Below, piece by piece: positions 2,445 through 56,808 of a stretch of DNA of 64,000 nt. Positions within the stretch are counted from its first letter, which is position 1, and the number at the start of each line of letters is the position of its first letter. This DNA is from a candidate division WOR-3 bacterium (lineage in GTDB: Bacteria; Hydrothermota; Tepidihabitantia; Tepidihabitantales; Tepidihabitantaceae): assembly GCA_965649295.1 (NCBI GenBank), contig CBFGKH010000006.1:117488-181487 (forward strand), in the 5' to 3' direction. The translations under genes and the position numbers were made by a program. The notes under the pieces were generated by a model, which was not told where the DNA came from, searched no databases, and saw only the letters and a list, made by a program, of their open reading frames with translations.

Positions 2445-4463
2445 CTATCTCTCTATCGGCTCCGGCAGCGGTAGCTGCTCAGTTGTGCCGGTAACCGACG
2501 CCGGAGTCGCGGCGGTTGCCGTTTCAAGCGGCCCTGGCGCTTCGGGCAAACGGAGACCCTCGTTGCCCTTCCATTTGGCGAGCACCCGCCAGGAGAATCG
2601 GGCATCGCTCTGCCCGCCCTGTAGCTCATAGACGTCGAACCCGGTCGCGTTCTTTTTCACATAGACGCCTCGGCAGTCATCTTCGAGCTGAACAAAGACC
2701 TTGAGCGGATGCTCGTCATTGACAGTAATGCAGTCAACGAAGACCGGTTCGAGATTGATGCGGCAGTGGCCGTTGACCAGTTGTCCCACACCGGCGTCCT
2801 CGAAGTAGGGTTCAGGCATCTCCGGCGCAAACAGGGTCTTGCGGCCATCCCGCGTCGCCATGATTGTACTCACCGTGCCGTTGCCAAGTATCTTGTAGTT
2901 GGTCGTGCCGTTGTAGTAGCTGACATAGGCATACGCACCGTAGCCGTTTGAGAAGTAGCCACCCTGGCCCACCCCAGTGCTGCTGGCACGGCCGTAGATG
3001 CCACAGCTTGTTCCCACACCAGCCACGCCGCTGCCCGCGGTCAGATACGATCCGGGTGAACCCTGGCCTGTTGCCAATAGCCCGGTACCAGAGGAGTTCT
3101 GGTTGCCGGCAAACAGACCAAAACCGGTCGGGCTGTTGGCCAAGCCGTAGATGCCGTAGCAACCGCCCGAAGTGTTCGTGGCGTAGCCGCAGGCGCCATA
3201 GACAGTGCCGGTAAAGGCACCGCCCGCACCACTGGACGGGTTCTCAAAAAAGCTGACGCCATTGCCAACGCCAATGACGCCGGTGCCGTTTGTCGCGTTG
3301 GCTTTTAGATAGCCGCCCTTACTGCTACCGACAAAGGCGCCGCCGCAGCCGCCAGTCGGCACGCTGATGCTCTGCCCCTGACCAGCGCCGACTATGCCAA
3401 CCCCACTGGCATTGCCATTGTAACCTGCCACACCGTAGCAGCCCGAGGTGTTAGTCTGGCCATAGACACCGTCGGCCACTGTTCCGCCACTGCCATACAC
3501 ACCAGGATAGGACGAGGTCCCCGACTGTCCATACACACCCGCAGCATAGGTTCCGCCATTGCCGTAGATGCCCGGTGCCGCACTCGAATTGGCCACGCCG
3601 TAGAACTGACCTGCCCGGCACGTGCCACTCATCCAGAAATTGCCGGTCTGGGCACTGGCATACTGATTGCGAATATAGCGGTCATCACCCCAGACCGAGT
3701 CAAACCGCACCGTGCCAGTGGTCGTAATTGGGTTGGGCGTGCAGACCACGCCAGCACCCTGACTGACACTAGTAACCGTGCCGCCACCCGACACTCCAAC
3801 GCTGTCGTTTGCCGGAACCCACGCCGAACCACTCCACTTCATCACCTGACCGGTCGAGGCGCCCATCCGCCCAAGGTCAGCAGCCGCAATCGTGCCGTCG
3901 CTAATCATCGCCGATGTCACCGCGCCAGCCTGCCCTTCGTTGACATACCGGCTGTCAAGCGCAGTCGTGTCCTTGCCCTGCAGCAGGTCAGCATTCGCCG
4001 CCCGCTCGCTGAGATACGCATACGCGGCACTAGCGATTTGCAGACGCGGAGCCAATTCTGCGCCACCACCAACCGCCATCCCCAGATAGACCGCTCCTCC
4101 GTCCGGTATCGTACCGATTGGTGTCACTGATCCAAGCAGCACCGAAAAGAGCCCAGCTCGGGTGCGCACACTCTGAGTTTCCTCCCAGAACTGGGTCCCG
4201 CCGCTCGGCTGACTGTACAGCCGGAACCGTATTGAGTAGAGCGTGTCTGCCACCGGCAGGCCCAAGGTGTCGGTCAGCTTGCCTTGATACGACAGCAGCC
4301 GCGGTATCGTGATGGCATCAGTGCCGCCGACAACTGCCGATGACAGACGTTGGGTCTCGTTGTTCTGCCATCTGACTTCTGGCTTCTCGCCTCTGGCTTC
4401 ATTCTGTGCCACAGCCAATACTACAGCCGTCGCCAGCACGAGCATCGTGACTCTCTTCATCAT
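2445..4463 (-). CDS. Secreted tail-fibre-like protein 1 (YQGKL N-terminal domain, Gly-rich GVYG repeats, phage-fibre-like C-terminal domain)
   Basis: Signal peptide; LLSYQGKLTD..YSIRFRLY; ANADLLQG and GQVMKWSGSAW fibre motifs; many GVYG/GIYG repeats; C-terminal PEPYFEDAGVGQLVNG..VFVQLEDDCRGVYV..GFDV..FSWRVLA. SD AGGAG overlaps the upstream stop. Confidence 0.75.
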   Translation of the reverse strand: MMKRVTMLVLATAVVLAVAQNEARGEKPEVRWQNNETQRLSSAVVGGTDAITIPRLLSYQGKLTDTLGLPVADTLYSIRFRLYSQPSGGTQFWEETQSVRTRAGLFSVLLGSVTPIGTIPDGGAVYLGMAVGGGAELAPRLQIASAAYAYLSERAANADLLQGKDTTALDSRYVNEGQAGAVTSAMISDGTIAAADLGRMGASTGQVMKWSGSAWVPANDSVGVSGGGTVTSVSQGAGVVCTPNPITTTGTVRFDSVWGDDRYIRNQYASAQTGNFWMSGTCRAGQFYGVANSSAAPGIYGNGGTYAAGVYGQSGTSSYPGVYGSGGTVADGVYGQTNTSGCYGVAGYNGNASGVGIVGAGQGQSISVPTGGCGGAFVGSSKGGYLKANATNGTGVIGVGNGVSFFENPSSGAGGAFTGTVYGACGYATNTSGGCYGIYGLANSPTGFGLFAGNQNSSGTGLLATGQGSPGSYLTAGSGVAGVGTSCGIYGRASSTGVGQGGYFSNGYGAYAYVSYYNGTTNYKILGNGTVSTIMATRDGRKTLFAPEMPEPYFEDAGVGQLVNGHCRINLEPVFVDCITVNDEHPLKVFVQLEDDCRGVYVKKNATGFDVYELQGGQSDARFSWRVLAKWKGNEGLRLPEAPGPLETATAATPASVTGTTEQLPLPEPIER
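3820..4315. repeat. Dispersed direct repeat copy 1 (coding N-terminal domain of fibre 1)
   Basis: Long stretches match 7310-7802 by eye, e.g. gccgcaatcgtgccgtcgctaatcatcgccgatgtcaccgcgcc. Confidence 0.85.
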
Positions 4464-4469
4464 CTCTCC

Positions 4470-5984
4470 TTACTGCCCAATCAGGGCAAAGCTCTTTGAG
4501 CAAGCAGCGGTCCCGCCGAGTCGGCAGAAGTAGCTACCGGCCGGCACTCTTCTCCGTCCATCATCCGTTCCATCCCACCAGGTCCAGCATTCCTGCCCGG
4601 TGCCGCGCACAGCAAGCCGCCTCACGTTCCGGCCCAAGGCATCGCTGATGAGCAGACTGCCGTCTGCACCAGCCGGGAGTTGCCAGCGCAGCCACGCGCC
4701 GCCGGGTGCCGACCGAACCGCCAGCACGACGTCCGCTGCCAGCGGTGCAGACTCGACGACGCCGGTGCTGTCACCCTCAATCGTCGCGCGCCACGCGAAT
4801 CGCCAGCCACCGGTCTCGACCAGCTGCGTGGCCACCGCCACCAGGACAATCGTGTCATACTGCCATCCCGGAATGACAATCGAACCGGTATCAAGCGAGT
4901 TCGGTAGCAATATGCGGTATTCACGCGGTATCGAGCCAAGTCCCAGCACATAGACGTCCCAGGTGCGGCCATCCTCACCGTCAAAGAAAATTCGCACCCG
5001 ATTCTGACCAAAACCGGTGAACCCGACAAACTTGCAGCCACCGGGAGCTTCTGGCAACCGGTCGGTGGCTGAATCAATGACCGGATACTGGGCGTACCAG
5101 TGATAACACCGACTCGTCTGCCAGTCCTCGGCATCCTGGAAGTGACGGCTGTCGTCGCGGCTGCCCGTGAACCAGCGCCAAATCGCATAGTGCCCCAGCG
5201 CCCGCTCCATTGTTGAGCTGTAGTAGTTGTAGAGCGCAACCCAGGTGCCCCACCAGGTGTTCTCGCCACCCTGCGCGCCGAGTTGCTCCCAGACCCGGCG
5301 CGGACAGACCGGGTCTGCATAGTATTCGTGCAGGAACCTAGGCCAAAGCCAGCCCGGATAGGTGAATCGGCTCAGTCGAAAATGGGTGCTGTCCAACGGA
5401 TGGCGAAAACCGTTAAGCCACCACGCACCGAATCCCCAGCCTTCCATTGTCCAATCGCTCATCCACTCGGCAGTGTTCTCGTAGAACGATGTAATCTCCA
5501 CTCCGCTGTAGCGAGCCTGGCAGGCGTGATTGAACTCATGGGCGATGACCAACCGCAAACCACTCCAGTTCAGACCAGTCCTGATTTGAATAAAACAGGT
5601 CCAGCCATCAGGGTAGGGTTCATCATACTGGTCTTCCGGCGATGTCAGTCCGTCCCAAGCGCTCGTATCCACAAGATAGACGTCGAGCCTGCTGTCCGGC
5701 CCTTGCTGGTCTGGTGCTGGCGCGGCCCATCCCAGGGTATCCACCTGGCGCCACCAAGCGCGAGCGACATACGAGCTGGCTGACTCGGCATAGGCATGCG
5801 TCGTTGCGTGCCGACCAGTCGTGTCATAGTGAACCCAGCAGCTGCCGCTGCCAGTCCGGCACTGACCAACTGCTGGCCGGTGGGCCAAAATGCCGGCGCG
5901 AAACTGGTCAAGCCGCTCCGGTGTTCCGCAGACCAGCCCGCCAGACGGCGCTGCCAGTAACAGAACCGCCAGCAGCGCGCTCAC
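4470..5984 (-). CDS. Secreted zinc metalloprotease (HExxH, MXAN_6640-like) with FlgD-Ig/T9SS-like C-terminal domain
   Basis: IAHEFNHACQ zincin motif and downstream FYENTAEW; C-terminal WDGTDDGRRRVPAGSYF. GTG at 5984 overlaps the upstream TGA (GTGA) and precedes a signal peptide. Confidence 0.8.
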   Translation of the reverse strand: MSALLAVLLLAAPSGGLVCGTPERLDQFRAGILAHRPAVGQCRTGSGSCWVHYDTTGRHATTHAYAESASSYVARAWWRQVDTLGWAAPAPDQQGPDSRLDVYLVDTSAWDGLTSPEDQYDEPYPDGWTCFIQIRTGLNWSGLRLVIAHEFNHACQARYSGVEITSFYENTAEWMSDWTMEGWGFGAWWLNGFRHPLDSTHFRLSRFTYPGWLWPRFLHEYYADPVCPRRVWEQLGAQGGENTWWGTWVALYNYYSSTMERALGHYAIWRWFTGSRDDSRHFQDAEDWQTSRCYHWYAQYPVIDSATDRLPEAPGGCKFVGFTGFGQNRVRIFFDGEDGRTWDVYVLGLGSIPREYRILLPNSLDTGSIVIPGWQYDTIVLVAVATQLVETGGWRFAWRATIEGDSTGVVESAPLAADVVLAVRSAPGGAWLRWQLPAGADGSLLISDALGRNVRRLAVRGTGQECWTWWDGTDDGRRRVPAGSYFCRLGGTAACSKSFALIGQ

Positions 5985-7921
5985 TTCAGCCCCGTAACCG
6001 CTCGTTCTGTCGGAGACGGCGCCGACTGGCAACGCCGACCAACCGCAATCCAGTCGAATGTCACTTCCGCCCCCTCGTCCGACTCGACCCGGAATCCGGC
6101 CACACTCTTGGCCGCCACCCAGACTCCTTTGCAGCGCGATGTCGGTGTGACCGTCACCTGCAGCCCTTCACCTTCCAGCGCCTGACTGAACCCAATCGGG
6201 AACTCCACTTCGGCCCTGCCATCAGCCAGTCGGGCCGAACCCGAGGCCACGACCTGTTGCTCTTGTCCAATCAGCCCATAGCCGGTCACGCCATCTGCCA
6301 GCCAGGTCTGCCAACCACCGGTGGCGTAGCCGTGTCCCTGCACATAGAAGCCGCGAATGCCAGCACCAGTACCGGTGTTGTTATAGGCGGTCAGGGCGTA
6401 GTTGTCGTTGTTGTTGTTCCGAAAGTGGCCGCCCGCACCGTTGTTGCTGTTGGCATAGACACCGTAGCTACCGGCATTGGAGACAAGCACGCCCATCGCA
6501 TTGGCGTTCGGCGTGTACAAGGCGTAGTTGGCATTCGTCACCTGCACGCCGTCGTCTCCCGCACTTGCTATCTGGATGCCGTCAATGCTTGCCGTGCCGA
6601 CGACCACCCCGAACTGCGCTGAATTGATGCGGAAACCCTGATTGGCGGTATCAACCTGCACGCCGGTCGAGTCCGCCTTCAGCACACGCACGCCATCCTT
6701 GCGCGCCCGCTGCACATAGGCGCCGTGAGCATTGGCCCGCGCCACGTGCAGCCCGTGCGCGCCAGCCCGGTCAATCGCGAACCCGGACCAGCCGCAGGAA
6801 TCGGCGTGAAACCCGTGATGCCCGCTGAACCCGGCATCGAAGCCGTTCATAGTGACAGCGGTGTCAACCTGCACGCCGGTCGTCTGCGCTCGCACGACCT
6901 CGATGCCATCGGCACCGGCGCGGCCGACATACACACCTTCCCAGCCAGTGTTCCCTATCCAAATGCCCAACGACTGGGCCGAGTCAATCCGCAAGCCGTT
7001 GCCTTGTGACGCCAGAACCTGGACGCCGTTCTGCGTTGCCCGCTCTACAAACAGCCCGGCCTGGGCACTGTCCACGCGCACGCCGAACAGACCGGCTCGA
7101 TCCACGGTCAGGCCGTTGTAGCTTGAGCGCCAGACCCGCATCCCGTAGTCACCGGCACGAATCACCGCGATTCCGCCGCCCGCGCCGCTGTTGTTCGCCA
7201 GCAGCACCGCGCCGGTTCCGGCCACCGCCGCATCAAGCGTGCAGGGCTTGACAATATCACTGCCGCGCACCGGCCCGGCACCGATCCCGATGCTGTCATT
7301 ACGCGGCTGCCACGCCGAGCCGGTCCACTTCATCACCTGCCCGGTCGCAGCGCCCATCTGCCCAAGGTCACTAGCCGCAATCGTGCCGTCGCTAATCATC
7401 GCCGATGTCACCGCGCCGGCCTGCCCTTCGTTGACATACCGGCTGTCAAGCGCAATCGTGTCCTTGCCCTGGAGCAGGTCGGCATTCGCTGCCCGCTCAC
7501 TCAAGTAGGCATAGGCCGCGCTCGCTATCCGCAGCCTCGGAGCCAGCTCGGCGCCGTTCACCGCCATCCCAAGATAGACCGCACCTGCGTCCGGCACCGT
7601 GCCGATTGGTGTCACCGACCCAAGCAGCACCGAGAATAGCCCGGCTCGGGTGCGCACGGACTGGGTCTCCTCCCAGAACTGGGTACCGCCGCTTGGCTGG
7701 CTGTACAGCCGGAAGCGAACCGAGTAGAGCGTATCTGCCACCGGCACCCCCAAGGTGTCGGTCAGCCTGCCTTGATACGATAGCAATCGGGGAATGGTAA
7801 TATTGTCGGTCGCGAAAGTTACCGCGCCTGCCTGGCGAGACAACCCCGGCTGCTCCAAATGAGCACTAGCCAGCGCCAGCACCCAAAGCGACAGCAGTAT
7901 CAGCACGTTCCGTACGACCAT
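5981..7921 (-). CDS. Secreted tail-fibre-like protein 2 (paralog of 2445-4463) with 10-11-aa beta-repeat shaft
   Basis: ATG at 7921 after SD AGGGAGG; N-terminal domain nearly identical to fibre 1; repeats G-hydrophobic-x-V-x-x-A; C-terminal VVASGSARLADGRAEVEFP..VTVTPTSRCKGVWV..GFRVES..FDWIAVG. Confidence 0.75.
   Translation of the reverse strand: MVVRNVLILLSLWVLALASAHLEQPGLSRQAGAVTFATDNITIPRLLSYQGRLTDTLGVPVADTLYSVRFRLYSQPSGGTQFWEETQSVRTRAGLFSVLLGSVTPIGTVPDAGAVYLGMAVNGAELAPRLRIASAAYAYLSERAANADLLQGKDTIALDSRYVNEGQAGAVTSAMISDGTIAASDLGQMGAATGQVMKWTGSAWQPRNDSIGIGAGPVRGSDIVKPCTLDAAVAGTGAVLLANNSGAGGGIAVIRAGDYGMRVWRSSYNGLTVDRAGLFGVRVDSAQAGLFVERATQNGVQVLASQGNGLRIDSAQSLGIWIGNTGWEGVYVGRAGADGIEVVRAQTTGVQVDTAVTMNGFDAGFSGHHGFHADSCGWSGFAIDRAGAHGLHVARANAHGAYVQRARKDGVRVLKADSTGVQVDTANQGFRINSAQFGVVVGTASIDGIQIASAGDDGVQVTNANYALYTPNANAMGVLVSNAGSYGVYANSNNGAGGHFRNNNNDNYALTAYNNTGTGAGIRGFYVQGHGYATGGWQTWLADGVTGYGLIGQEQQVVASGSARLADGRAEVEFPIGFSQALEGEGLQVTVTPTSRCKGVWVAAKSVAGFRVESDEGAEVTFDWIAVGRRCQSAPSPTERAVTGLK
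7310..7802. repeat. Dispersed direct repeat copy 2 (coding N-terminal domain of fibre 2)
   Basis: See copy 1; differences are mostly synonymous. Confidence 0.85.
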
Positions 7922-8384: not shown

Positions 8385-8945
8385 CTAGTGCAGCCGCTCC
8401 AGATACTTGCCGGTGGCGACGTCAATCCGAATGCGGTCGCCGTTCTTGATGAACTGCGGCACTAGCACTTCAAGTCCGTTCTCGATTGTCGCCGTCTTCG
8501 GTGCGGCATTGGGATCGCCGTGCAGGGCCGGCCCAGTTGCCGTCACCACCACATCAACTGTCCGCGGCAGAACCGCATCCAGCGGCTCACTGCCCAAAAA
8601 CTCAAACTGCAGTCGGCACCCGTCAGTCACAAACCGCTCGTAGTTGCCAAGCATCTGTCTCGGGATGGCGATATCCTCAAAAGTCTCGGGATGGAGAAAA
8701 TGAAACGTATCGGCATCACGATAAGAGTAGTCCAGCCAGACCGTCTCCACCGCAATGTCCTCAACCTTGGCCTCCGGATGAAGGCGTTGTTCGGTCTGGG
8801 TGTGGGTGCGAAGATTGCGCAGCCGGACATGAACCGAACTCGGCAGCTTGGCCGTCCCGACCTTGAGCTCGGCGTGCAGCACCTTATACAGCTCGCCATC
8901 AATTCGGACACACATCCCATCGCGCAGGTCTGCTGCCTTAATCAT
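8385..8945 (-). CDS. efp: Elongation factor P family protein, divergent loop
   Basis: MIKAADLRDG..IDGELYKV, VRLRNLRT, KTATIENGLEVLVPQFIKNGDRIRIDVATGKYLER. Loop is VGTAKLPS rather than PGKG. Promoter TTGACA-N17-TAGGCT and SD AGGAG. Confidence 0.85.
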   Translation of the reverse strand: MIKAADLRDGMCVRIDGELYKVLHAELKVGTAKLPSSVHVRLRNLRTHTQTEQRLHPEAKVEDIAVETVWLDYSYRDADTFHFLHPETFEDIAIPRQMLGNYERFVTDGCRLQFEFLGSEPLDAVLPRTVDVVVTATGPALHGDPNAAPKTATIENGLEVLVPQFIKNGDRIRIDVATGKYLERLH

Positions 8946-9128
8946 ACACGCTCCTAGTTACCTGACCCAGCCTAGCCGACGCCAGACACGCTGTCAAAGA
9001 GAACTGCCGCCAACTCCGTACGATATCGGTCAATTCTCAGCCCCGCCAACGACCGTGGCTAAGCTCCAACCGTCGCCATAGCTGTGTGCTCAGAAGACCA
9101 TGGCCTGTTCTCGATGTTTCTGGCTGGA

Positions 9129-9480
9129 AACTTCTGCAAGACAATCGGTTAGGTAGAGCCACCAGTCCTCGAGACCCCCTCCCCGTGGACTGTCCCGGGA
9201 GTGGTCCCCAAAGCTACCCGCAACCCCGCTGGCCGCAGCACTCTCGTAGCCCTTCTCCACTGTCCTTGCCCGCGAGCCTCCAAACCGGCCTGCGCAGGCC
9301 CTTTCTATTGGGTGAGCCATAGTCCTTCGGGCAGCCCCTGCAACAGTGCCTCTGGACAAGCCTCGCCTTCCCCTCGCATCGGCCTTCTCGCCGCTCTCTG
9401 GCCACCTCCTAGGACTTACCCTTAGTAAGCGCTCCGAGCAGCCCCTCGTTGCCCACTCACCAGACCGCCTCCTTGCGGTC
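9129..9480 (+). repeat. Degenerate 12-nt-periodic intergenic array, copy A (conserved head plus about 25 units)
   Basis: Parsed as 12-mers from 9181, 24 of 25 units start with two pyrimidines; head matches the reverse complement of 34884-34960. Confidence 0.75.
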
Positions 9481-9541
9481 CCAACCTTGGTTTGCCGAGA
9501 GCCGTTGTTCTCGGCTCACCTGGTTACTGGCCCTCTGGTTT

Positions 9542-9570
9542 TTGACTTCGCGGCCCGACCCTCCTATCAT
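9542..9570 (+). promoter_or_regulatory. Sigma70 promoter, leaderless configuration
   Basis: TTGACT-N17-TATCAT, 8 nt before ATG 9579; no SD. Confidence 0.65.
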
Positions 9571-9578
9571 TGCCAGTT

Positions 9579-10718
9579 ATGCGTCTGCTCGTTGTCAACT
9601 GGCGCTGCATCAAAAACCCGCTGGCCGGTGGTGCTGAAATCTACTTTCAGGAGATCTTTTCGCGCTTGGTCCGGCGCGGTTACGAAGTGACACTGTTGGC
9701 TGAGCGCTTTGCCGGTTCGATGCCCGAAGAGACAATTGACGGGATTCGGATCATCCGCCGGGGTGGCAAGAACACTTTCAACTTCACGGTCTATCGCCAC
9801 ATTGACCGGCTGGCCAAATCGCTCGAAGCCGACCTCGTGATTGACGACCTGAACAAGATTCCCTTCTATTCGCCGTGGTTTACCCGGCGGCCGGTGCTGG
9901 CGATTCTGATGCATCTCTTCCGCGGCGCAATCTTCCACGAGACCCTACCGCCGCTTGCCGCCTATGTCTGGCTGGCAGAGAGCATCATTCCTTTGGCATA
10001 TCGGAACTGCCGGTTCGCCGTGCTCTCCGAAAGCTCAAAGGCCGACACCGTCCGGCTCGGCATCCGGCCCGAGCGCATCACCGTAATTCCGCCCGGCACC
10101 GACTTCGACCGCTTCCGGCCGCCCACTAGCGCACCGGACCGCCTGACCACTGCTGTGCCGGTCGTCCTCCACGTCGGCCGCCTGAAGAAATACAAGGCCA
10201 CCGACCACCTGCTTCAGGCCTCACGCCGGCTGCTCGACAAAGGGGTGAAGCATCGCGTGGTCATAGTCGGCACCGGCGATGACCTGCCGCGGCTGCGCAA
10301 GATTGCCGCCGGTCTCGGTCTGGACCCCACGGTCGAGTTCACCGGCTTTGTCTCAGAAGAAGAGAAAATAGCCTGGTACCGCCGTGCTGCGGTGCTATCT
10401 GAGAACTCGGTGAAAGAAGGTTGGGGACTGATTGTGATGGAGGCGAATGGCTGCGGCCTGCCAGTCGTGGTTGCCGACTCGCCCGGCCTGCGCGACTCCT
10501 CCCGCGACGGCATCAACGGCCTGGTCTATCCTTACGGCGATATTCCGGCCCTGGCCGAACGGCTCGAACGGCTGCTCACCGACGAGGCCCTGCGCCAAAA
10601 GCTTGGCGAGCAGGCCATCAAATGGGCGCACCAGTGGACCTGGGATGCTGCCGCCGACCAGATGGCGGCAGTGATCGAGCAGGCAAAGACCGAAGCCGAA
10701 AAGGTAGGGGGAAGATGA
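9579..10718 (+). CDS. Glycosyltransferase family 4 (GT-B)
   Basis: NP.AGGAE.Y, HVGRLKKYK, EGWGLIVMEANGCGLPVV (Ex7E motif). Confidence 0.92.
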   Translation: MRLLVVNWRCIKNPLAGGAEIYFQEIFSRLVRRGYEVTLLAERFAGSMPEETIDGIRIIRRGGKNTFNFTVYRHIDRLAKSLEADLVIDDLNKIPFYSPWFTRRPVLAILMHLFRGAIFHETLPPLAAYVWLAESIIPLAYRNCRFAVLSESSKADTVRLGIRPERITVIPPGTDFDRFRPPTSAPDRLTTAVPVVLHVGRLKKYKATDHLLQASRRLLDKGVKHRVVIVGTGDDLPRLRKIAAGLGLDPTVEFTGFVSEEEKIAWYRRAAVLSENSVKEGWGLIVMEANGCGLPVVVADSPGLRDSSRDGINGLVYPYGDIPALAERLERLLTDEALRQKLGEQAIKWAHQWTWDAAADQMAAVIEQAKTEAEKVGGR

Positions 10719-32584: not shown

Positions 32585-32701
32585 GGTTGCGACGCTAGAT
32601 TATGGCCAAAGACCGTTCCGAGTGACCATGAAAGAGTTGCTCTCCTGGGCTTCTGCCCAGGAGGGTTGCGACGCTAGATTATGGCCAAAGACCGTTCCGA
32701 G
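32585..32701 (+). repeat. Perfect 38-bp direct repeat flanking a 41-bp hairpin-containing spacer
   Basis: ggttgcgacgctagattatggccaaagaccgttccgag at 32585-32622 and 32664-32701; spacer contains ctcctgggc-ttct-gcccaggag. Confidence 0.9.
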
Positions 32702-34566: not shown

Positions 34567-34603
34567 GTCATTCCGAGACCGCGCAGCGGTCGAGGAATCG
34601 CCG
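34567..34603. repeat. REP/dRS3-like palindrome, copy 2
   Basis: gtcattccgagaccgcgcagcggtcgaggaatcgccg; same termini as 16612-16648. Confidence 0.65.
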
Positions 34604-34630
34604 GTCCTAGCCTGAGCAAAGCCAGGCCAC

Positions 34631-34960
34631 GAGACTAGCCGGTATCGGCTGAAGCCTATCCTGCCAGCCTGTTGCGAAGAAATCGGCCAGGACTCTCGAT
34701 GGCAGCCTCTCTAGGACAGCTACCGGGAGCTGCGCTGGCCTCTCTGCTAGGCCTCGCGCAAACTCAGCCCGAAGCTCTGCCGCCGGCATTCCCGGAAACC
34801 GGTCTAGTGGCACCATCGTCAGCAGCAGCGGCAACTGGACCAAGAAGCGAGACACTGACCGCCTCGCTGAGGTGCTCGACAGGAGCTGGGGAGACCATTC
34901 CGGGGACAGTAGAGTGGGAGTGGGTCGTATCGAGTCTAGCCGATTGACTGCTCAGAAGTT
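34631..34960 (-). repeat. Degenerate 12-nt-periodic intergenic array, copy B
   Basis: Parsed as 12-mers from 34631 on the plus strand, 23 of 24 units end in two purines; head matches copy A in reverse complement. Confidence 0.75.
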
Positions 34961-35147
34961 AGGCCTCGCGACCGCCGGCAACAGCCGACACCACCGATTC
35001 TCTCTGCTCCGTTTGGCCATTCAGGCAGCATAACAATAATAGGGCCGCGCTCGGGCCACTACCCGCTCGCCGCCGAAATCCAGGCCAACCTCGCTATATC
35101 GCTCAGGCCCAGGCCGGTTCCGGCTCCCAGCCGATTGCCGGCACCGC

Positions 35148-45429: not shown

Positions 45430-48400
45430 GTGATGATGCGACAGATGTCCTTGCTGACTGCCATTATCCTTGTGGGCCTGGCAGCAGCCCAGACAGGTGT
45501 TGACCTTAGCCAGGCCGGCTATCTCCCCGCTGGCACCGAAATAGTCGAACTCCGTACTGCTGACGCCCGCCACTACAGTAATGGCGACGGCACAATAACC
45601 GCCGTCATCGAGGCGCTCAATCCCGGCGGCCCGAACCCGCAGCCTTTCGATGTCACCACGCTCAGCTCCGGCTATACCTGTTTCATCGAGAAGATGACGG
45701 TTCTTTGGATAACCTATTACTCCCGCACGACCGGTGATTTCCACGTCGGCTACTATACTGAAAGCGGCGGCACCATTCAGGAACGGGGCATGGCTGAATG
45801 GCAGCTTGGCTCGATCCCGGACAATGCCACTGTCAGCTCGGTTTCGTGCTCAACACGCTGCTTCAACTCCGGTTACAACTGGCCGACATCAGTGCCGCTG
45901 TATGAGATGACGAACCGCCCATCAACGACCCCAAATGACAACCCTGGCAACACGACGTTGTTCAATGATGCCGGTGACGGCGTGCAATATGCGACCTACA
46001 CTGGGTTTGCTAACGACATCTGGCTACACGCAACCCTGAACGGCGCTGCCCCGCTTGTCCAGTCCCGCCTCACCGGAGGTGACTGGTTCGCCCTCGGCTA
46101 CTCCTACACCGGCTCTGGTTCGGCCTACGAGGCCGGTTTCTACGGTGCTTGGGGAAACTATGCGCCCAAGCTCCGAGTCACCTACACCGTTCCGGCCACT
46201 CATGATGTCGGCGTGACCCAGATTCTTGCCCCAACCGGCACAGTTGATTCTGGTGCTCAGGTCACGCCCTCCTGTATCGTCCAGAACTACACAAGCAGCT
46301 CCGCGAGCTACATTGTGCGGCTCAAGGTCGGTCCCAATGGCAGCTACTACAACGGTACCGCCTCGGTTACTAACCATCCGGGCAACTCAAGCCTCACAGT
46401 AACCGGCTTCTCGCCACCAATGTATGCCAACTGGCCGCGCAACACTGCCATCGCTGTCACCTGCTCAACCGAGCTTACCGGCGACGCCAACAACAATAAC
46501 GACAAAGCTACTACCAGCGTCCAGACTCGTGTCCGTGATGTCCAGCCGACAATCTGGTACCAACCTCCCACAAACGTTGACTCCGGTGTAACCGTCACGC
46601 CGTCGGTGCGTGTCCAAAACAACGGCACAGTGCTGGCAACTTTCAATGTCCGGTTCTGGACAAGCGACGGCTTCTCCAGTACCAAGACCGTGACCAATCT
46701 CTCGGCCAATGGCGGCCAGGACATTGTTGACTTTGACCCCTGGACAATCACCACCCGCGGCACAGTCGCCTGCACCTGCGCCACCCTGCTCAGCGACGAT
46801 ATGATTCGGGCCAACGACAGCATCAGCCGCAACGTGAGCGTTGCCGTGCGTGACGTCCGGGCAGTGGCAATCACCGCACCGGTCGCAGTTGACTCGGGTG
46901 TGCCGGTAACGCCCGAGGCAACGGTCCAGAACCTGGGCACGGCAGCAGCAACCTTCCCAGTGCGCCTGTTCGTGGATGGCGTGCCGCACGGCAGCGACAA
47001 GTGGGTGAACAATCTCGCGCCCGGCCTGCCGCCAGTGGCCGTGACTTTTGACGAATGGACTCCGAACCGTCACGGCAGCTTTGTCCTGCGCTGCTCGACT
47101 ATGCTCGCCAACGATATGGTCCCAATCAATGACACAGTCTCGCGCACCGTGTCGGCAATGGTGCGGGACGTGCGGCCAATGCGCATCAACGTGCCGGCAG
47201 CCGAAATTGACTCTGGCCCGCCGCTGCTACCGAATGTGACGGTTGAGAACGTCGGCCCCAACCCATCCGGCCCGTTTGATGTCAGACTGACCATCGGCGC
47301 GTGGTCCGACCTCTATCACCTCGACAACCTTGCGCCCGGCGAGACTGCCCGTATCGGATTCCACTCCTGGCAGCCGCAGCGCGGGACTTGGCCGATTGAG
47401 CTTGTCACTCTCCTTGCTGGCGACGCCAACCCCGGCAATGACACGATTCGTTCCTCGGTCACGGTAGCTGTCCGCGACATCGGCGTCGGCTCAATACTGG
47501 CACCGGCTGGCAACGTCCGTCGCGGCACAGTCATAACTCCCCGCATTGCCATTACAAACTACGGCAACCAGCCAGCCCTGGCCAACGCCGAACTGGTGAT
47601 CAAGGACGAGTTTGGGACGGTCCTGCATACCGCCCAGGCGCGAGATGTCGCGGTCCCGGTTGCCGGTCTGGATAACCTGCCGCTTGAACCCGACTGGCCA
47701 GCGACCAATCTTGGCCGATTCCAGGCTGTCGCCAGAACCGTCTATGGCGATGACATGCATCCCGAGAACGATACCGACAGCACCTACTTCGACGTTGTTG
47801 CCGGCAGCACTGACATTGGTGTCCAGCGAATTTGGTCGCCAGCCGGAACGATTGACACTGGTACCACCGTTGTGCCAACCGTCTGGATTTACAATCCTGG
47901 CGAGCTGACTGCTGATGGCGACGCATTCTTCACCATAACCCACGCCAGCGAAACTGTATATTCAGCCACCGCCGCGATTGTCGGGCTCGCGCCGGGTGAA
48001 TCAACCGAAATCAGCTTTGACGGCTGGCCCGGCCCCCACCCTGTCGGCAGCTACGTTGGTCGCTGCTCAGTGGCGCTCGCCGGTGACGAGAATCCTGCCA
48101 ACGACACCCTGAGCCGGCCGTTTACCGTTGTTGCTCGCACCAACTGGCCGAGTGGCTGGCAGGAGGTGAGTAACCTGCCGGCTCCACCCTCCAACCGGCA
48201 GGTCAAGGACGGTGGCTGGATTGCAGGCCCGGCTGCCAATGGCCTGCTCTACGCAATCAAGGGCAATAAGGTGCGTGACTTCTATGCCTACGACCCGATT
48301 GCCGATAGCTGGACCCGCAAGGCCGATTTCGGTTCTTCCAGCAGCCGGCTGCCCGGCAAGGGCGGTGCGGCGATTGCTGACGGTGGCCGCTACATCTATG

Positions 48401-49371
48401 CGGTCAAGGGCAACAACAGCCTTGAGTTCTACCGCTACGACGTGACCACTGATAGCTGGCAGGCATTGCGCGAGGTCCCGCCCGGCAACCACAAGATCAA
48501 GGCTGGCGCCGACCTCGCCTATGTGAACTACGGTGACACCGGCTATGTCTATCTCCTCAAAGGCTACCGCAACGAGTTCTACCGCTACAACACCGTAAGC
48601 GGCGAGTGGCAGACCGAAACCCGGGCTCCGGACCGGGCCAGCCCTAAGTACGACAAAGGTTCATTCCTTGTCGGCGACGGCACCGGTGTGCTCTATGTCC
48701 ATCAGGCCAAGTTCCACCGGCTCTACCGTTACGACGTCGCCACCCGCGCCTGGAGTGCCGATACCTTGCGGGGCATGCCGTTCGTCTCCCGTGTCTTCAA
48801 CCGCACCCGCCAGTCCAAAGACGGCGGCTGCGCCGCCTGGTCCAACGGCATCATCTATGCGCTCAAGGGCAACAACACCCAGGAGTACTACCGCTACTTC
48901 CCAGCCCATGACTCCTGGCAGGAACTTGACACAATGCCGCAATGGGGCCGGCTCACCCAACGCAAGCGGAAGGTCAAGTCCGGTGCCGATATCACCAGCT
49001 ACGAGCCAGGCGTTATCTTTGCCCTCAAGGGCAACAAGACCAACGAATGCTGGCGCTGGAAAGACTGGCCAACCGCCTACTCGCTATCGCCCCAGCGCGA
49101 CGGCATTGCCACCAGCTATTTGGCTGGCGACTATCAGTTGACGATTACCCCCAATCCGCTGCGCACTGGCTTCCTCTGCCTGACCACCGGCCCGCTCTAT
49201 GACCGTGCTACGCTCTCTGTCTTCGATCCGCTTGGTCGCCGCGTCCTCACTCGGCCGCTTACACGCTCGTCCGCTCAACTCGACCTGCGTTCCCTGCCGA
49301 GCGGTGTCTATCTCCTCCGCATCGATCTCGGCAGCAGCCGGTTCACCCGCAAACTGGTAATCGAGCACTAA
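45430..49371 (+). CDS. Large secreted multidomain protein: DNRLRE-like domain, six CARDB-like Ig repeats, Kelch-like propeller, T9SS-like C-terminal domain
   Basis: Signal peptide; repeats beginning HDVG/RDV/RDIG/TDIG..P; YAIKGN..FY.YD...W repeats; PNP..FDPLGRRV..LPSGVYLLR. Confidence 0.85.
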   Translation: MMMRQMSLLTAIILVGLAAAQTGVDLSQAGYLPAGTEIVELRTADARHYSNGDGTITAVIEALNPGGPNPQPFDVTTLSSGYTCFIEKMTVLWITYYSRTTGDFHVGYYTESGGTIQERGMAEWQLGSIPDNATVSSVSCSTRCFNSGYNWPTSVPLYEMTNRPSTTPNDNPGNTTLFNDAGDGVQYATYTGFANDIWLHATLNGAAPLVQSRLTGGDWFALGYSYTGSGSAYEAGFYGAWGNYAPKLRVTYTVPATHDVGVTQILAPTGTVDSGAQVTPSCIVQNYTSSSASYIVRLKVGPNGSYYNGTASVTNHPGNSSLTVTGFSPPMYANWPRNTAIAVTCSTELTGDANNNNDKATTSVQTRVRDVQPTIWYQPPTNVDSGVTVTPSVRVQNNGTVLATFNVRFWTSDGFSSTKTVTNLSANGGQDIVDFDPWTITTRGTVACTCATLLSDDMIRANDSISRNVSVAVRDVRAVAITAPVAVDSGVPVTPEATVQNLGTAAATFPVRLFVDGVPHGSDKWVNNLAPGLPPVAVTFDEWTPNRHGSFVLRCSTMLANDMVPINDTVSRTVSAMVRDVRPMRINVPAAEIDSGPPLLPNVTVENVGPNPSGPFDVRLTIGAWSDLYHLDNLAPGETARIGFHSWQPQRGTWPIELVTLLAGDANPGNDTIRSSVTVAVRDIGVGSILAPAGNVRRGTVITPRIAITNYGNQPALANAELVIKDEFGTVLHTAQARDVAVPVAGLDNLPLEPDWPATNLGRFQAVARTVYGDDMHPENDTDSTYFDVVAGSTDIGVQRIWSPAGTIDTGTTVVPTVWIYNPGELTADGDAFFTITHASETVYSATAAIVGLAPGESTEISFDGWPGPHPVGSYVGRCSVALAGDENPANDTLSRPFTVVARTNWPSGWQEVSNLPAPPSNRQVKDGGWIAGPAANGLLYAIKGNKVRDFYAYDPIADSWTRKADFGSSSSRLPGKGGAAIADGGRYIYAVKGNNSLEFYRYDVTTDSWQALREVPPGNHKIKAGADLAYVNYGDTGYVYLLKGYRNEFYRYNTVSGEWQTETRAPDRASPKYDKGSFLVGDGTGVLYVHQAKFHRLYRYDVATRAWSADTLRGMPFVSRVFNRTRQSKDGGCAAWSNGIIYALKGNNTQEYYRYFPAHDSWQELDTMPQWGRLTQRKRKVKSGADITSYEPGVIFALKGNKTNECWRWKDWPTAYSLSPQRDGIATSYLAGDYQLTITPNPLRTGFLCLTTGPLYDRATLSVFDPLGRRVLTRPLTRSSAQLDLRSLPSGVYLLRIDLGSSRFTRKLVIEH

Positions 49372-54201: not shown

Positions 54202-56808
54202 ATGTCCAAAGGGTTCTTAGTTGCCATCTGCGGTCTGCTCGCTGCCAGTGCCTTTGCTGGCACTGATATTGACCTATGGGGAAAACCAAGCCCCAGCCAT
54301 CCGCCGCGTTTCTCTGCCGCTGACGGAAACTGGTTTGGCGAGTTCTTGGTTGACACCGCCGTTGTCTGGGCACCAGGCCAGGGCACAATGCCAGCAGTTG
54401 CCTGGGGTGGCGGCAACTGGCTAGCGGTCTGGCACGACAATGTTCGGTCAGCAACCGGCACGGTCTATGCTGCCCGCGTCACGCCGGGGGGCGGGCTCCT
54501 TGACTCGGCGCCCATCTTCCTCGCCAATGGTGCCACCAACCCGGCAGTCGCCTTTGACGGCACCAACTTCCTCGTCGTCTGGGAAAAGGCAACCGGCACC
54601 AATCAGTACGACATCTATGGGGCCCGAATCAGCCCAACCGGCGCGGTGGTTGACACTGGCGGCGGCTTCCCGATTGTCGAGAATCCGACCAGCTCACAGT
54701 CATTTCCGGCCGTCAGTTTTGGCGGTGGTAGCTTCCTCGTTGTCTGGGAAGACGACCGCAACACGGCAACAACCGGCAGCGACATCTATGGCCGGCTGGT
54801 AACACCTGCCGGCACTGTCGGACCGGAGTTTGTCGTCGCCAACTGGCTCCGCGACCAAACCCGACCCCGCGTGGCCTACGGCGACACTATCTTCTGCGTG
54901 GCCTGGCAGGACCAGCGCACTGGCCGGCCAGCACCGTTTGCCGGCCGCGTCACCCGCTCCGGCGTCCTCCTTGACATCTACGGTATCCGGCTCACCGACA
55001 ACAACTCGCAGCAGATTGGCCCGGCAGTCGCGTTCGGCGGCGGCAACTTTCTGGTTGCCTGGGCGCGGTATGACTCGGCTGCCCAGGTGAACCGTCTTCG
55101 CGGCACCAGGGTCACACCCGCCGGCGCTGTGCTCGACTCCGCCGGCTTGGTGCTGGCGATGAGCACCACCGGTGAATGGGGCCCGGCAATTGACTTTGAC
55201 GGCACTAACTTCCTCATCGCCTGGATGAGCCGACCGATGAGCGGCTCCGATGTCTGTGCCTCACGGGTCACAGCTCAGGGCGAACTGATTGACACCGTGG
55301 CGATTGAGGTTGGCCGTGCCCCGAACGTCCAGGAGTTTCCGGCCCTGGCCTTTTCCGGCAGCAGCTATCTTGTCCTCTGGTCCGACATGCGCAGCCCGTC
55401 CTATGCGGTGGCAATCTACGGCTCGCGCGTCACAACCGGTGGCTTGCCTCTTGACTCGGCCGGCATCCGCATCTCCTGGGGCGCCAATGCCCAGGGCATT
55501 CCGGCCGCGGCATCGGACGGCACGAATTACCTGGTTGTCTGGCAGGACTATCGTTCCGACGGTGAGGACTCCGACATCTACGGCATCAGGCTTGACTCGC
55601 TCGGCCGGCAACTGGAGCCGACCGCCTTTCCGATTGTCACCCGCCGCGGCTACCAAGGCGAGGCCCAGGTCGCCTTTGACGGCACCAACTGGCTTGTCGT
55701 CTGGCAGGACAGCCGAACCGCTGGCTCAGCCATCTACGCTGCCCGGGTCTCGCGGGCCGGCACGGTGCTTGACCCTGACGGCCAAGAGCTGTTCCGAACT
55801 GCCGGCGACTATCTGCGACCAGCAGTCGCCTACAACGGCACTAACTATCTTATCGCCTGGGGTGACTACGCCACTGGCGGCCCGCCCAATATCCGCTACG
55901 GCCGGGTGCGGCCCGACCTGACCGTTCTCGACTCCGGCGGCATCCTCGTTCCCTACGACACCATCACCGTCGCCCGCTCTTATTGCAGTATCGGCTCGGA
56001 CGGCACCAACTGGCTACTATGCTGGACCGACGGTCACGACCGCAACTTCTCTGACGTCTATGCCACCCGCATCGGCCCGAACGGCACCGCGCTCGACTCG
56101 GCCGGCTTCCCGGTCAGTCAAGCCCTTTTCTACCAGTATTGCCCGGCTGTTTGCTTCGACGGCACCAACTATCTGGTCGCCTGGACCGACCGCCGCTCCC
56201 AGCAGGATACAGCTATCTATGCGGCCCGCGTCTCGCCCACTGGCACTGTTCTGGAACCCAACGGCATCCCCGTCAGCTCTGGCGCCGACTTCCTGACCCG
56301 GGCAACGAGCCTTGTCTGGAACGGCACCGAATGGGTGCTCGGCTGGGGTCGCCGGGGCCTGATTCGCGGTGCCCGATTGCAGCCCAGCGGCGCGGTTATT
56401 GACACCTTCACGATTATCCGCTGGGGTCAGGCCTACTACCCGGGCTTTGCTGCCCGCAGCCGTGGCCAGGTCTTGCTCTGCTACACTGGCTGGGCTGAGG
56501 AATACCGCGGCCGCCACATCGGCGTCGCCCGCATCTGGGGCAAGTTCGGGCCATTCCCTGGTGTTGCCGAGGAACCCTTAGCAGCCGAGCTAGCCAGCAG
56601 CATCAGGGTCCTGCCCAATCCCACCGCCGGCCCGGCCCTCATCCGCACTGCCCAAGCCCGGCGCGTCGCGGTCTACGATGCTCTTGGCCGACTGGTGCGA
56701 AGGCTCGAACTGCAACAAGGCCAGGCTCAGCTCACCGGCCTTCAACCGGGTGTCTATCTGCTGTTAGCAGAACCAGGCGCGGCCCGAGCCAAGCTGATCG
56801 TCCGCTAG
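54202..56808 (+). CDS. Secreted 14-repeat (probable double beta-propeller) protein with T9SS-like C-terminal domain
   Basis: About 14 copies of PAVAFDGTN(F/Y)LVVW.D.R..DIYG.RV...G.VLD; PNP..YDALGRLVR..PGVYLL; SD GGGAG. Confidence 0.85.
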   Translation: MSKGFLVAICGLLAASAFAGTDIDLWGKPSPSHPPRFSAADGNWFGEFLVDTAVVWAPGQGTMPAVAWGGGNWLAVWHDNVRSATGTVYAARVTPGGGLLDSAPIFLANGATNPAVAFDGTNFLVVWEKATGTNQYDIYGARISPTGAVVDTGGGFPIVENPTSSQSFPAVSFGGGSFLVVWEDDRNTATTGSDIYGRLVTPAGTVGPEFVVANWLRDQTRPRVAYGDTIFCVAWQDQRTGRPAPFAGRVTRSGVLLDIYGIRLTDNNSQQIGPAVAFGGGNFLVAWARYDSAAQVNRLRGTRVTPAGAVLDSAGLVLAMSTTGEWGPAIDFDGTNFLIAWMSRPMSGSDVCASRVTAQGELIDTVAIEVGRAPNVQEFPALAFSGSSYLVLWSDMRSPSYAVAIYGSRVTTGGLPLDSAGIRISWGANAQGIPAAASDGTNYLVVWQDYRSDGEDSDIYGIRLDSLGRQLEPTAFPIVTRRGYQGEAQVAFDGTNWLVVWQDSRTAGSAIYAARVSRAGTVLDPDGQELFRTAGDYLRPAVAYNGTNYLIAWGDYATGGPPNIRYGRVRPDLTVLDSGGILVPYDTITVARSYCSIGSDGTNWLLCWTDGHDRNFSDVYATRIGPNGTALDSAGFPVSQALFYQYCPAVCFDGTNYLVAWTDRRSQQDTAIYAARVSPTGTVLEPNGIPVSSGADFLTRATSLVWNGTEWVLGWGRRGLIRGARLQPSGAVIDTFTIIRWGQAYYPGFAARSRGQVLLCYTGWAEEYRGRHIGVARIWGKFGPFPGVAEEPLAAELASSIRVLPNPTAGPALIRTAQARRVAVYDALGRLVRRLELQQGQAQLTGLQPGVYLLLAEPGAARAKLIVR

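Follow-up and report, generated by a model that had tools for sequence, protein, structure and literature searches.

Two intergenic regions of the 64-kb stretch of DNA analysed here, which comes from a candidate division WOR-3 bacterium and is called the window below, contain related elements, copy A and copy B. Copy A occupies the gap of 633 bp that separates efp (8385-8945, minus strand) from the plus-strand gene of a GT4 glycosyltransferase (ATG at 9579). Copy B lies in the opposite orientation, directly downstream of rex and on the same strand as this gene. The two gaps differ in their orientation: that of copy A is divergent and that of copy B is convergent. Each element starts with a leader of ~90 nucleotides (nt), made up of a core box of ~27 nt and a small hairpin that abuts the array, and continues as a long array of 12-nt units that are largely unlike in sequence but begin with two pyrimidines. 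Copy A and its inverted sister are dispersed non-coding "leader + phased array" elements of WOR-3 bacteria. The evidence is good for the identity of the element as well as for its non-coding nature and its membership of a family. The family appears to be new, as no description of it was found in the literature searched, where reports on 12-nt or 12-bp periodic or dodecamer prokaryotic repeats and on WOR-3 repeats held nothing comparable.

An earlier note on this DNA had proposed that copy A is phased in 12-mers from 9181 without any indel, almost all of them starting with two pyrimidines (YY) and most of them ending in C or G. This rule was reproduced, with a YY start in 24 of the first 25 units and a C/G end in 23 of them, and the phase was found to run on to 9516, with a YY start in 26 of 28 units. 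Over the full array of copy A, position 1 is a pyrimidine in 28/28 units, position 2 in 26/28, and position 12 is G or C in 24/28; the respective values for copy B are 24/24, 23/24 and 23/24. When the 52 units are pooled, position 1 is always a pyrimidine (52/52), position 2 nearly always (49/52), position 12 is G or C in 47/52 and position 5 is C in 31/52, and all other positions are near base composition. The pooled units start with CT (17), CC (15), TC (9), TT (8) or TG (3). If copy A is cut in other phases, the YY count falls, down to 3-4 at phases 5-6. Given the YY frequency of the array itself, 26 YY starts in 28 units have a binomial P of 2e-8 (3e-7 corrected for 12 phases), and the YY starts of copy B have a P of 3e-10 after the same correction. 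The purine/pyrimidine Fourier power of copy A forms a single sharp peak of 4.3-4.4 at period 12 and is only 0.5-0.7 at period 3; among the dinucleotide-preserving shuffles that served as controls for the array, the period-12 power averages 0.3 and reaches 1.9-2.3 at most (3000-5000 shuffles), and the maximum over periods 4-40 is 2.5. Copy B has a period-3 power of 3.1 besides its period 12, which probably reflects harmonics of a unit pattern with Y at positions 1, 2 and 5. In a sliding period-12 scan of the 64 kb, all of the 40 strongest windows fell within 9073-9530 or 34573-34930. The position profiles of the two arrays have a similarity of 0.67 at shift 0 (the next best value is 0.29), and despite this common profile their sequences are barely alignable outside the leader.

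The leaders, in turn, can be aligned with each other. A core box of the form AACTTCTG-N5/6-CAATCGGYTAG is common to both copies, and a second block matches by BLAST at 76.7% identity over 43 nt (33/43; 9173-9215 against 34926-34884), in agreement with the match between the two heads that the earlier note had described. The alignment score of the two leaders is 56, against 17 +/- 3 for shuffles. Because the lengths of the linkers differ, the core box does not stand in the 12-nt register of the array in both copies alike. The stem of the small leader hairpin is compensatory among copies, being GGGA/TCCC in copy A, GGA/TCC in copy B and GGGG/CCCC at L206, a locus from a WOR-3 metagenome-assembled genome (MAG) discussed below. 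The distal hairpins have an identical inner stem in copies A and B and outer stems that differ but pair in both. A 31-mer over 9176-9205, within the leader, has a depth of ~3x in the metagenome run X1. The coordinates of all these features are collected in Table 1. The string CGGCTAG(A/T)CTCG recurs on the minus strand at 34630-34641 and 34931-34942, 301 nt apart, in the last unit and in the leader of copy B; its recurrence is near chance expectation and copy A has no clear counterpart.

Table 1 Features of copies A and B, of the neighbouring GT4 gene and of a sister array (positions are those of the window, except in the last line)
Feature	Position	Strand	Description
Leader core box, copy A	9129-9156	+	AACTTCTG-N5-CAATCGGTTAG(GTAG); most widely conserved part of the element
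Variable linker in leader, copy A	9157-9172	+	~10 nt longer than in copy B (pairwise alignment)
Leader block 2, copy A	9173-9216	+	GACCCCCTCCCCGTGGACTGTCCCGGGAGTGGTCCCCAAAGCT; overlaps the first three phased units
Small leader hairpin, copy A	9197-9200 / 9205-9208	+	GGGA / TCCC; within leader block 2
Phased array, copy A	9181-9516	+	28 units x 12 nt; strict set of 25 units, to 9480
Distal hairpin, copy A	9463-9480	+	GACCGC-CTCCTT-GCGGTC; outer pairing ACCA/TGGT; read from the sequence
Second hairpin, element end, copy A	9494-9515	+	GCCGAGA-N8-TCTCGGC; inverted repeat and fold; no T run directly after
GT4 sigma-70-like promoter site	9542-9570	+	TTGACT-17-TATCAT; near-consensus; ends 9 nt before ATG 9579
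Distal hairpin, copy B	34571-34597	-	TTCC-TC-GACCGC-TGC-GCGGTC-TC-GGAA; read from the sequence
Phased array, copy B	34631-34918	-	24 units x 12 nt; same register relative to the leader as in copy A
Leader block 2, copy B	34884-34926	-	BLAST match to 9173-9215
Leader core box, copy B	34936-34960	-	AACTTCTGAGCAGTCAATCGGCTAG; no listed difference in the related strain (alignment end 34966)
T-family array	L146 5075-5290 (JAPLUO010000339)		units TCTTGGTCnnGC; head-to-head with a GAGCTTTG-type element

The evolution of the elements was studied by comparison with a related strain, represented by the Logan contigs of three hot-spring runs, which is ~93% identical (~95% in efp and GT4). This strain carries both copies, each at its orthologous site. 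The alignment of copy A (9137-9557) contains array differences of 7-8% and zero gaps, and that of copy B (34678-34966) contains 39-40 substitutions and 0 gaps. The DNA outside both ends of each copy is unalignable between the strains: in place of the 138 nt between 8998 and 9137 the related strain has 106 unlike letters, and unlike sequence is found beyond both sides of the copy B alignment. The 30 letters that stand in place of the last units of copy B still start with TC, TG and CT in phase, as read from the loose-end consensus. The divergence of the arrays is thus 7-13%, compared with ~5% in the flanking efp and GT4, and the absence of indels over ~71 substitutions has a probability of 0.0008-0.03 at ordinary indel:substitution ratios (between 1:10 and 1:20). 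The listed substitutions fall on positions 1-2 of the unit in 6 of 48 cases, all of them from pyrimidine to pyrimidine or from purine to pyrimidine; through one of them (9314 G>C), the sole non-YY unit of the first 25, which starts with TG, becomes a TC unit. Of the 42 substitutions at the remaining unit positions, 17 are transversions. Change in the leader is 2-5 times slower than in the array, with a single listed difference (9171) within 9137-9216 of copy A; the box AACTTCTG is fully conserved in copy B, and the alignment of copy A begins just past it. Since length, phase and YY starts are kept despite a faster change than in the genes, selection would seem to act on the phase and the pyrimidine code of the array while its sequence drifts.

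Further copies were sought inside and outside the window. The window contains two, A and B, and an nhmmer search with their leader found no further copy in it or in 1.5 Mb of other loci. The nearest public EF-P relatives (82% and 70-74% identical) have a different synteny or lie on contigs that are too short, and no array was found there. In genome contigs, the ACTGTCCCNGGANTGGTC pattern gave chance matches only, the WOR-3 match (L108) being inside a gene, and the pattern AACTTCTGN{5,6}CAATCGGYTAG gave 2 matches, in Desulforhopalus and Moraxellaceae, which were taken as chance. A 21-base leader pattern had 0 matches in metagenome contigs and 0 in viral contigs. The resemblance of TCGGTTA...CTGTCCCG at L135 to the leader was rejected, as this sequence is a sigma-70-like promoter (TTGACT-16-TATCCT). 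A scan for the unit pattern (CAAAGCTCNNNN)x3 returned 78 loci, among which arrays of 21-26 units belong to the WOR-3 MAG JAPLUO01 and to two MAGs labelled only "uncultured bacterium". One further array of 25 units (L163) comes from an Akkermansiaceae MAG and has a strong period-3 signal. The repeats of 3-15 units in other phyla and viruses are of a different kind from the 21-26-unit arrays, and the viral matches were discarded as short perfect repeats that are unrelated.

The sister arrays of the GAGCTTTG type (RAGCTTT) have units that can be matched individually between copies and genomes, and a conserved module of ~85-140 nt that is always on the same side. The leader core of copies A and B corresponds to the reverse complement of this end module at the WOR-3 MAG loci L146, L171, L198 and L206. 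The multiple alignment of leaders and end modules has the invariant columns AAC..C.G...AG.CA..CGG.TA, and the string that they have in common, AGGCCTAAC.TC.G..CAGTCA..CGG.T.AG ... ACTCT ... GGTC.CCCC ... AGC..CT.TCGAG, runs directly into the first units. The leader of copy B aligns best to the reverse-complemented end module of L206, with a score of 35 (z = 7.2), and to that of L198 with z = 3.5; the leader of copy A alone compares weakly with the end modules (z up to 2.1). The array head of a further family, the TCTTGGTC-type or T family, is weakly similar to the leader (p about 0.004-0.04). In this T family, neighbouring units together make up covarying inverted repeats (TTGGTC/GACCAA, GGTCAG/CTGACC, TTGACCAA/TTGGTCAA), and dyad axes occur every 12 bp (fraction paired 0.66, z = 3).

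Once orientation and register are fixed by the leader, the units of the three families read CTTTGAAnnGAG, TCTTGGTCnnGC and YYnnC......S, where S is G or C. All three have a YY start and a G/C end of the unit, and the YY phase is therefore their common denominator. The unit profile of copies A and B has a similarity of 0.35-0.41 to the sister families. The highest of these values, obtained with CAAAGCTC in the same orientation (0.41), is misleading, as the leader homology shows the opposite orientation to be the true one. The elements resemble the GAGCTTTG/RAGCTTT elements (L146-L214) in their intergenic site, their exact 12-nt period without indels, their non-coding nature, their one-sided homologous module and their array length of 18-28 units (21-26 in sister arrays, 18 in the T family and 24-28 here). 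They differ from these in their leader, which is shorter and diverged, and in their units: a conserved core of 8-10 nt (GAGCTTTG or similar) is missing from copies A and B, where it is dissolved to S-YY (positions 12, 1 and 2) with a weak constraint to C at position 5. Copies A and B are therefore regarded as a separate, degenerate family of the same superfamily. The dispersed family that the earlier note had assumed is thereby borne out by two copies in the window, by the orthologues of both in the related strain and by a leader that is homologous to WOR-3 end modules.

Some observations were made on the sister loci themselves. An end module of ~85 nt, ending in CACTACATATAGA, is found at L150, L161, L167, L168, L188, L197 and L211; it has hairpin stems that differ among copies (GTGGTT...GACCAC against GTGGTA...TACCAC) and no Rfam match, and it looks like a structured domain. 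RNAalifold applied to the sister-family end module gave only 7 weak pairs, which establish no fold. Upstream of the T-family array, L146 also contains a box of ~42 nt (4965-5011) made up of (N)ACTTCTG-like heptamers and octamers, which is present in many RNA-derived contigs (runs X4-X7) with varied flanks and a high summed depth. A remnant of this box may survive in the leader as the single AACTTCTG.

Several explanations may account for a constraint of this kind. The one that we tentatively prefer, although we would not call it probable, is a docking lattice, nucleated at the leader, in which one protomer per 12 nt would read the size of pyrimidines, probably on RNA. A factor would recognise the conserved leader and nucleate there, and protomers would then be added cooperatively along the array, one for each 12 nt. 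Each of them would touch the pyrimidine pair through a size-selective pocket in which C and T/U are equivalent and from which purines are shut out. Candidate partners would be OB-fold, RRM or Rho-like pyrimidine binders. Among the options of the earlier note, a protein-binding array is thus retained as the best one; the near-helical spacing given as its reason is not, as an exact period of 12.0 over 28 units, in which only the distinction between purine and pyrimidine is read, points to a protomer-sized ruler and not to the 10.5-bp helix. Since C and T are interchangeable, purines are excluded and the strand asymmetry is strict, the lattice is most likely read single-stranded, on a transcript that would run from the leader to the array. 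Both the mechanism and its RNA level are what we infer from the pattern of the units. Two further observations hint at the RNA level. The arrays and leaders of L146 are covered by contigs of four lake metatranscriptomes at 85-95% identity, and the flanking genes have zero coverage. In copy A, the substitution 9480 C>T of the related strain, a single data point, falls in the distal hairpin and keeps a pair (G-U) only on the plus strand as RNA.

Polymers with an integer footprint are known from other systems, such as those behind the paramyxovirus rule of six and the origin of assembly of the tobacco mosaic virus (TMV), or TubR on the tubC of pBtoxis and the Adnaviria capsid on A-form DNA, both with 12 bp per dimer. 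These protein polymers also depend on a short signal in exact register and on an integer footprint, and twelve per protomer pair has a precedent among them on DNA. They differ from the present case in being viral or plasmid systems whose polymerising protein is encoded nearby; no such gene was found at copies A and B. In a more far-reaching form of the docking lattice, which is possible but rather doubtful, copies A and B would belong to a nucleoprotein "ruler" of WOR-3 bacteria, of a class not recognised before, in which a leader-nucleated protein polymer would measure out nucleic acid (probably RNA) in exact steps of 12 nt and require only YY of each step.

Several points weigh against a lattice on RNA. 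The avoidance of pyrimidine-to-purine changes at positions 1-2 has a Fisher P of 0.09 on a small and partial list of substitutions. The RNA contigs that cover L146 are strandless Logan contigs from other species and families, in which DNA carry-over is possible, and no RNA runs containing the copy A locus were found. The dyad symmetry of the sister TCTTGGTC family would fit dimers that bind double-stranded DNA too. No convincing promoter or terminator bracketing copy A or copy B was found, which, together with the occupation of both divergent and convergent gaps, rather favors DNA. Finally, the neighbouring genes suggest no partner protein for either copy.

The lattice might form on double-stranded DNA, where a coating or centromere-like protein, binding as one dimer per 12 bp from the leader onwards, would serve in chromosome organisation, segregation or silencing. 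The integer period is equal to the dimer footprints of TubR/tubC and of the Adnaviria capsid, the dyad axes of the T family at L146 recur with the same step, arrays are commoner in convergent gaps (6/13), and the lack of a recognisable promoter or terminator in gaps of both orientations would be natural for such a protein. Nevertheless, a rule that distinguishes only purines from pyrimidines, is strand-asymmetric and has no dyad would be hard to read from either groove, and 12 bp is far from the helical repeat of 10.5 bp. In addition, no TubR/TubZ, ParB, partition or capsid-like gene was found in the 64-kb window. Centromeres of the tubC/parC type are made up of sequence-conserved iterons beside the gene of their binding protein, whereas the units of copies A and B are unconserved and no partition gene is nearby. 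We therefore consider the double-stranded version unlikely.

Another possibility is that these elements are selfish or neutral dispersed repeats, without a function for the host, the phase of which would be the footprint of the way in which the array was built (e.g. templated repeat addition) and would be kept through descent. Dispersed intergenic repeats of comparable organization are well known: the BOX elements of Streptococcus pneumoniae are built as boxA-boxB(n)-boxC, REP/BIME and MIRU are similar, and the units of BOX and MIRU, 40-100 nt long, are recognisable as homologous copies, vary in number and have hairpin potential. Like them, the present family is multi-copy, dispersed and intergenic, with a modular head, repeats and tail, and such repeats often lie near the 3' ends of genes; the enrichment in convergent gaps, where insertions are least harmful, and the nearly random interiors of the A/B units also agree with a neutral origin. 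Unlike in BOX and MIRU, the units have 12 nt and unrelated interiors, their number, phase and purine/pyrimidine code are kept, and the length is equal between strains. Under descent alone, positions 1-2 would decay at the pace of the interiors, in contradiction with a position 1 that is invariably a pyrimidine, and it does not account for a phase that stays free of indels at this divergence while the flanks are scrambled. Mobility has left no sign either. The related strain has both copies at the orthologous sites and so offers no indication of recent movement, and no convincing terminal inverted repeats or target duplications were found around them, so that the mobile element considered in the earlier note finds no support; a 26-nt pair that is 73% complementary and a 12-nt direct repeat in the surroundings of copy B do not exceed chance expectation and are without a counterpart in copy A. 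A selfish origin is thus decidedly unlikely.

The comparison with the Rho factor deserves more attention, as its primary site is arguably the only well-understood reader of a pyrimidine dimer about every 12 nt on unstructured RNA. Rho utilization (rut) sites extend over ~78 nt of unstructured RNA with C>G and cytosines every 11-13 nt (PMC6407284), and Rho recognises [(YC)N9-13]n motifs, with 12-13 nt of RNA per subunit (PMC6144790). As in the arrays, pyrimidine dimers stand ~11-13 nt apart in unstructured sequence, and in rut sites each of them is read by the small pocket of one oligomer subunit (PMC6407284, PMC6144790), which is the best precedent for the reading of a code made up of pyrimidines alone at 12-nt spacing. 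The arrays could then be oversized Rho loading platforms, which would act as strong Rho-dependent terminators or as insulators between genes. The spacing of the pyrimidine dimers, which is that of neighbouring primary binding clefts, the C-rich (C/G 1.76) and unstructured array of copy A and the position of copy B downstream of rex, on its strand and in a convergent gap, are in favor of this interpretation. Yet rut sites are ~60-80 nt long, have 6 sites, prefer YC, show C>G, are G-poor and possess no conserved leader, whereas the arrays are unstructured over ~300 nt with an exact spacing of 12 nt, and their 24-28 sites exceed the number that one hexamer can use four- to fivefold. There is no preference for C at the second base of the dimer (C in 24/52), copy B has a C/G of 1.01 and no C>G bubble, a conserved leader is foreign to rut sites, and upstream of copy A there is no co-oriented gene whose transcript could be terminated. 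Moreover, the phased site of the sister unit GAGCUUUGAA lacks a YC. A function as a giant rut site is accordingly improbable.

A structured non-coding RNA, the function of which would lie in the fold of the array, is very improbable. The hairpins at the junction of leader and array and at the distal end do differ in a compensatory way between copies, and the end modules of the sister families have conserved hairpins. However, the minimum free energies of the two elements are no better than those of shuffled sequences (z = -1.47 and -1.29), no periodic hairpin, dyad or pairing between or within units was found in copies A and B, and the pyrimidine-rich array of copy A would be unable to pair with itself. 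No Rfam match reached the gathering score in the whole window or in 14 sister loci, and at E <= 5 both intergenic regions gave chance-level matches only. The structured RNA suggested by the earlier note thus finds no support in the array. Two kinds of transcribed arrays are nevertheless instructive for comparison. In the sponge RNAs CsrB/RsmZ (for CsrA) and CrcZ (for Hfq/Crc), many copies of a short motif titrate or scaffold one protein. The motifs of the known sponges are purine motifs (GGA or A-rich) in hairpin loops, irregularly spaced, and their transcription is experimentally known, in all of which they differ from the arrays described here. TIGR arrays have a 36-nt period with two alternating repeats of 8-12 nt, 9-nt spacers and an adjacent gene of the Nop-domain protein Tas (PMC12045711). 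They are alike in that very short conserved segments alternate with short variable ones, and they are transcribed and protein-bound (PMC12045711), but neither their 36-nt period nor their alternating repeats, spacers or Tas gene are present at copies A and B.

The last alternative, a decayed or fast-evolving gene with a tetrapeptide period of the form (L/P/S/F)-x-x-x, which the earlier note had also listed, is hardly credible and already largely refuted: codons with YY at positions 1-2 would indeed specify Leu, Pro, Ser or Phe, copy B has an open unit frame of ~104 codons (the period-3 power of this copy fits too) and the TGA at 9313 becomes TCA in the related strain, but copy A has 2 stops in each forward frame (in the unit frame the TAG at 9247 noticed before, which the related strain keeps, and this TGA), a stop-free unit frame would be expected by chance in roughly 8% of cases by our estimate because YYN is never a stop, the substitutions of copy B are spread over codon positions 1/2/3 as 7/10/10 whereas those of efp are mostly at the third position, the arrays share no frame (none is consistently open among 15 sister arrays) and the open reading frame has no Pfam or PHROG match.

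The genes around the two arrays encode EF-P, the GT4 glycosyltransferase, Rex and a bactofilin-domain protein. The EF-P of the window shares 70% identity with its counterpart in a WOR-3 MAG, and the public runs that contain the copy A locus are hot-spring metagenomes only. The earlier note had placed copy A between divergent promoters: the genes are indeed divergent and the promoter search of this gap detected a promoter-like site for GT4, but it identified none for efp. The GT4 site is so close to the ATG that the GT4 mRNA would be leaderless or nearly so, and if transcription does start from this site, the array of copy A is not a 5' untranslated region of GT4. No tRNA or tmRNA was detected.

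Other repeats of the window are of a different nature. Two perfect direct repeats of 38 nt (GGTTGCGACGCTAGATTATGGCCAAAGACCGTTCCGAG) lie just upstream of the bactofilin-domain gene, at 32585-32622 and 32664-32701 (79 nt from start to start, with a spacer of 41 nt); the arrangement resembles a duplicated regulatory unit or a minimal CRISPR-like one. Two stretches of ~510 nt (3796-4313 and 7287-7801), 3.49 kb apart in large minus-strand genes, are 85-86% identical and are paralogous segments of neighbouring exported-protein genes. Long coding repeats with FDGTNxLVxW-like and Kelch-like YALKGNN motifs, at 54390-56184 (period ~156-162 nt) and 48241-49057 (147-162 nt), are typical features of this lineage's giant secreted proteins.

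Bacterial repeats are mostly recognised by the likeness of their units. Units that are unlike in sequence but all start with a pyrimidine bear the signature of a reader of spacing and base size, and not of sequence. The link through the leader reduces the essentials of the superfamily to a G/C followed by YY once per 12 nt, beside a leader, and to this picture copy A adds the minimal code, the homology of its leader to sequence-conserved families and the upkeep of phase and code under drift. If the ruler set out above does exist, cells would possess an equivalent of the phase-coded assembly signals that are so far known only from viruses, such as the rule of six and the TMV origin of assembly, and one that spans several leader-related array families in one phylum. 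The minimal code would then be visible in the degenerate family of copies A and B because the rest of the unit is free to drift. To our knowledge, the WOR-3 phylum has no cultured representatives. If no partner exists, the arrays would still represent an unusual, purely periodic constraint on non-coding DNA; if one is found, they would reveal a new kind of nucleic-acid-organising system in this phylum.

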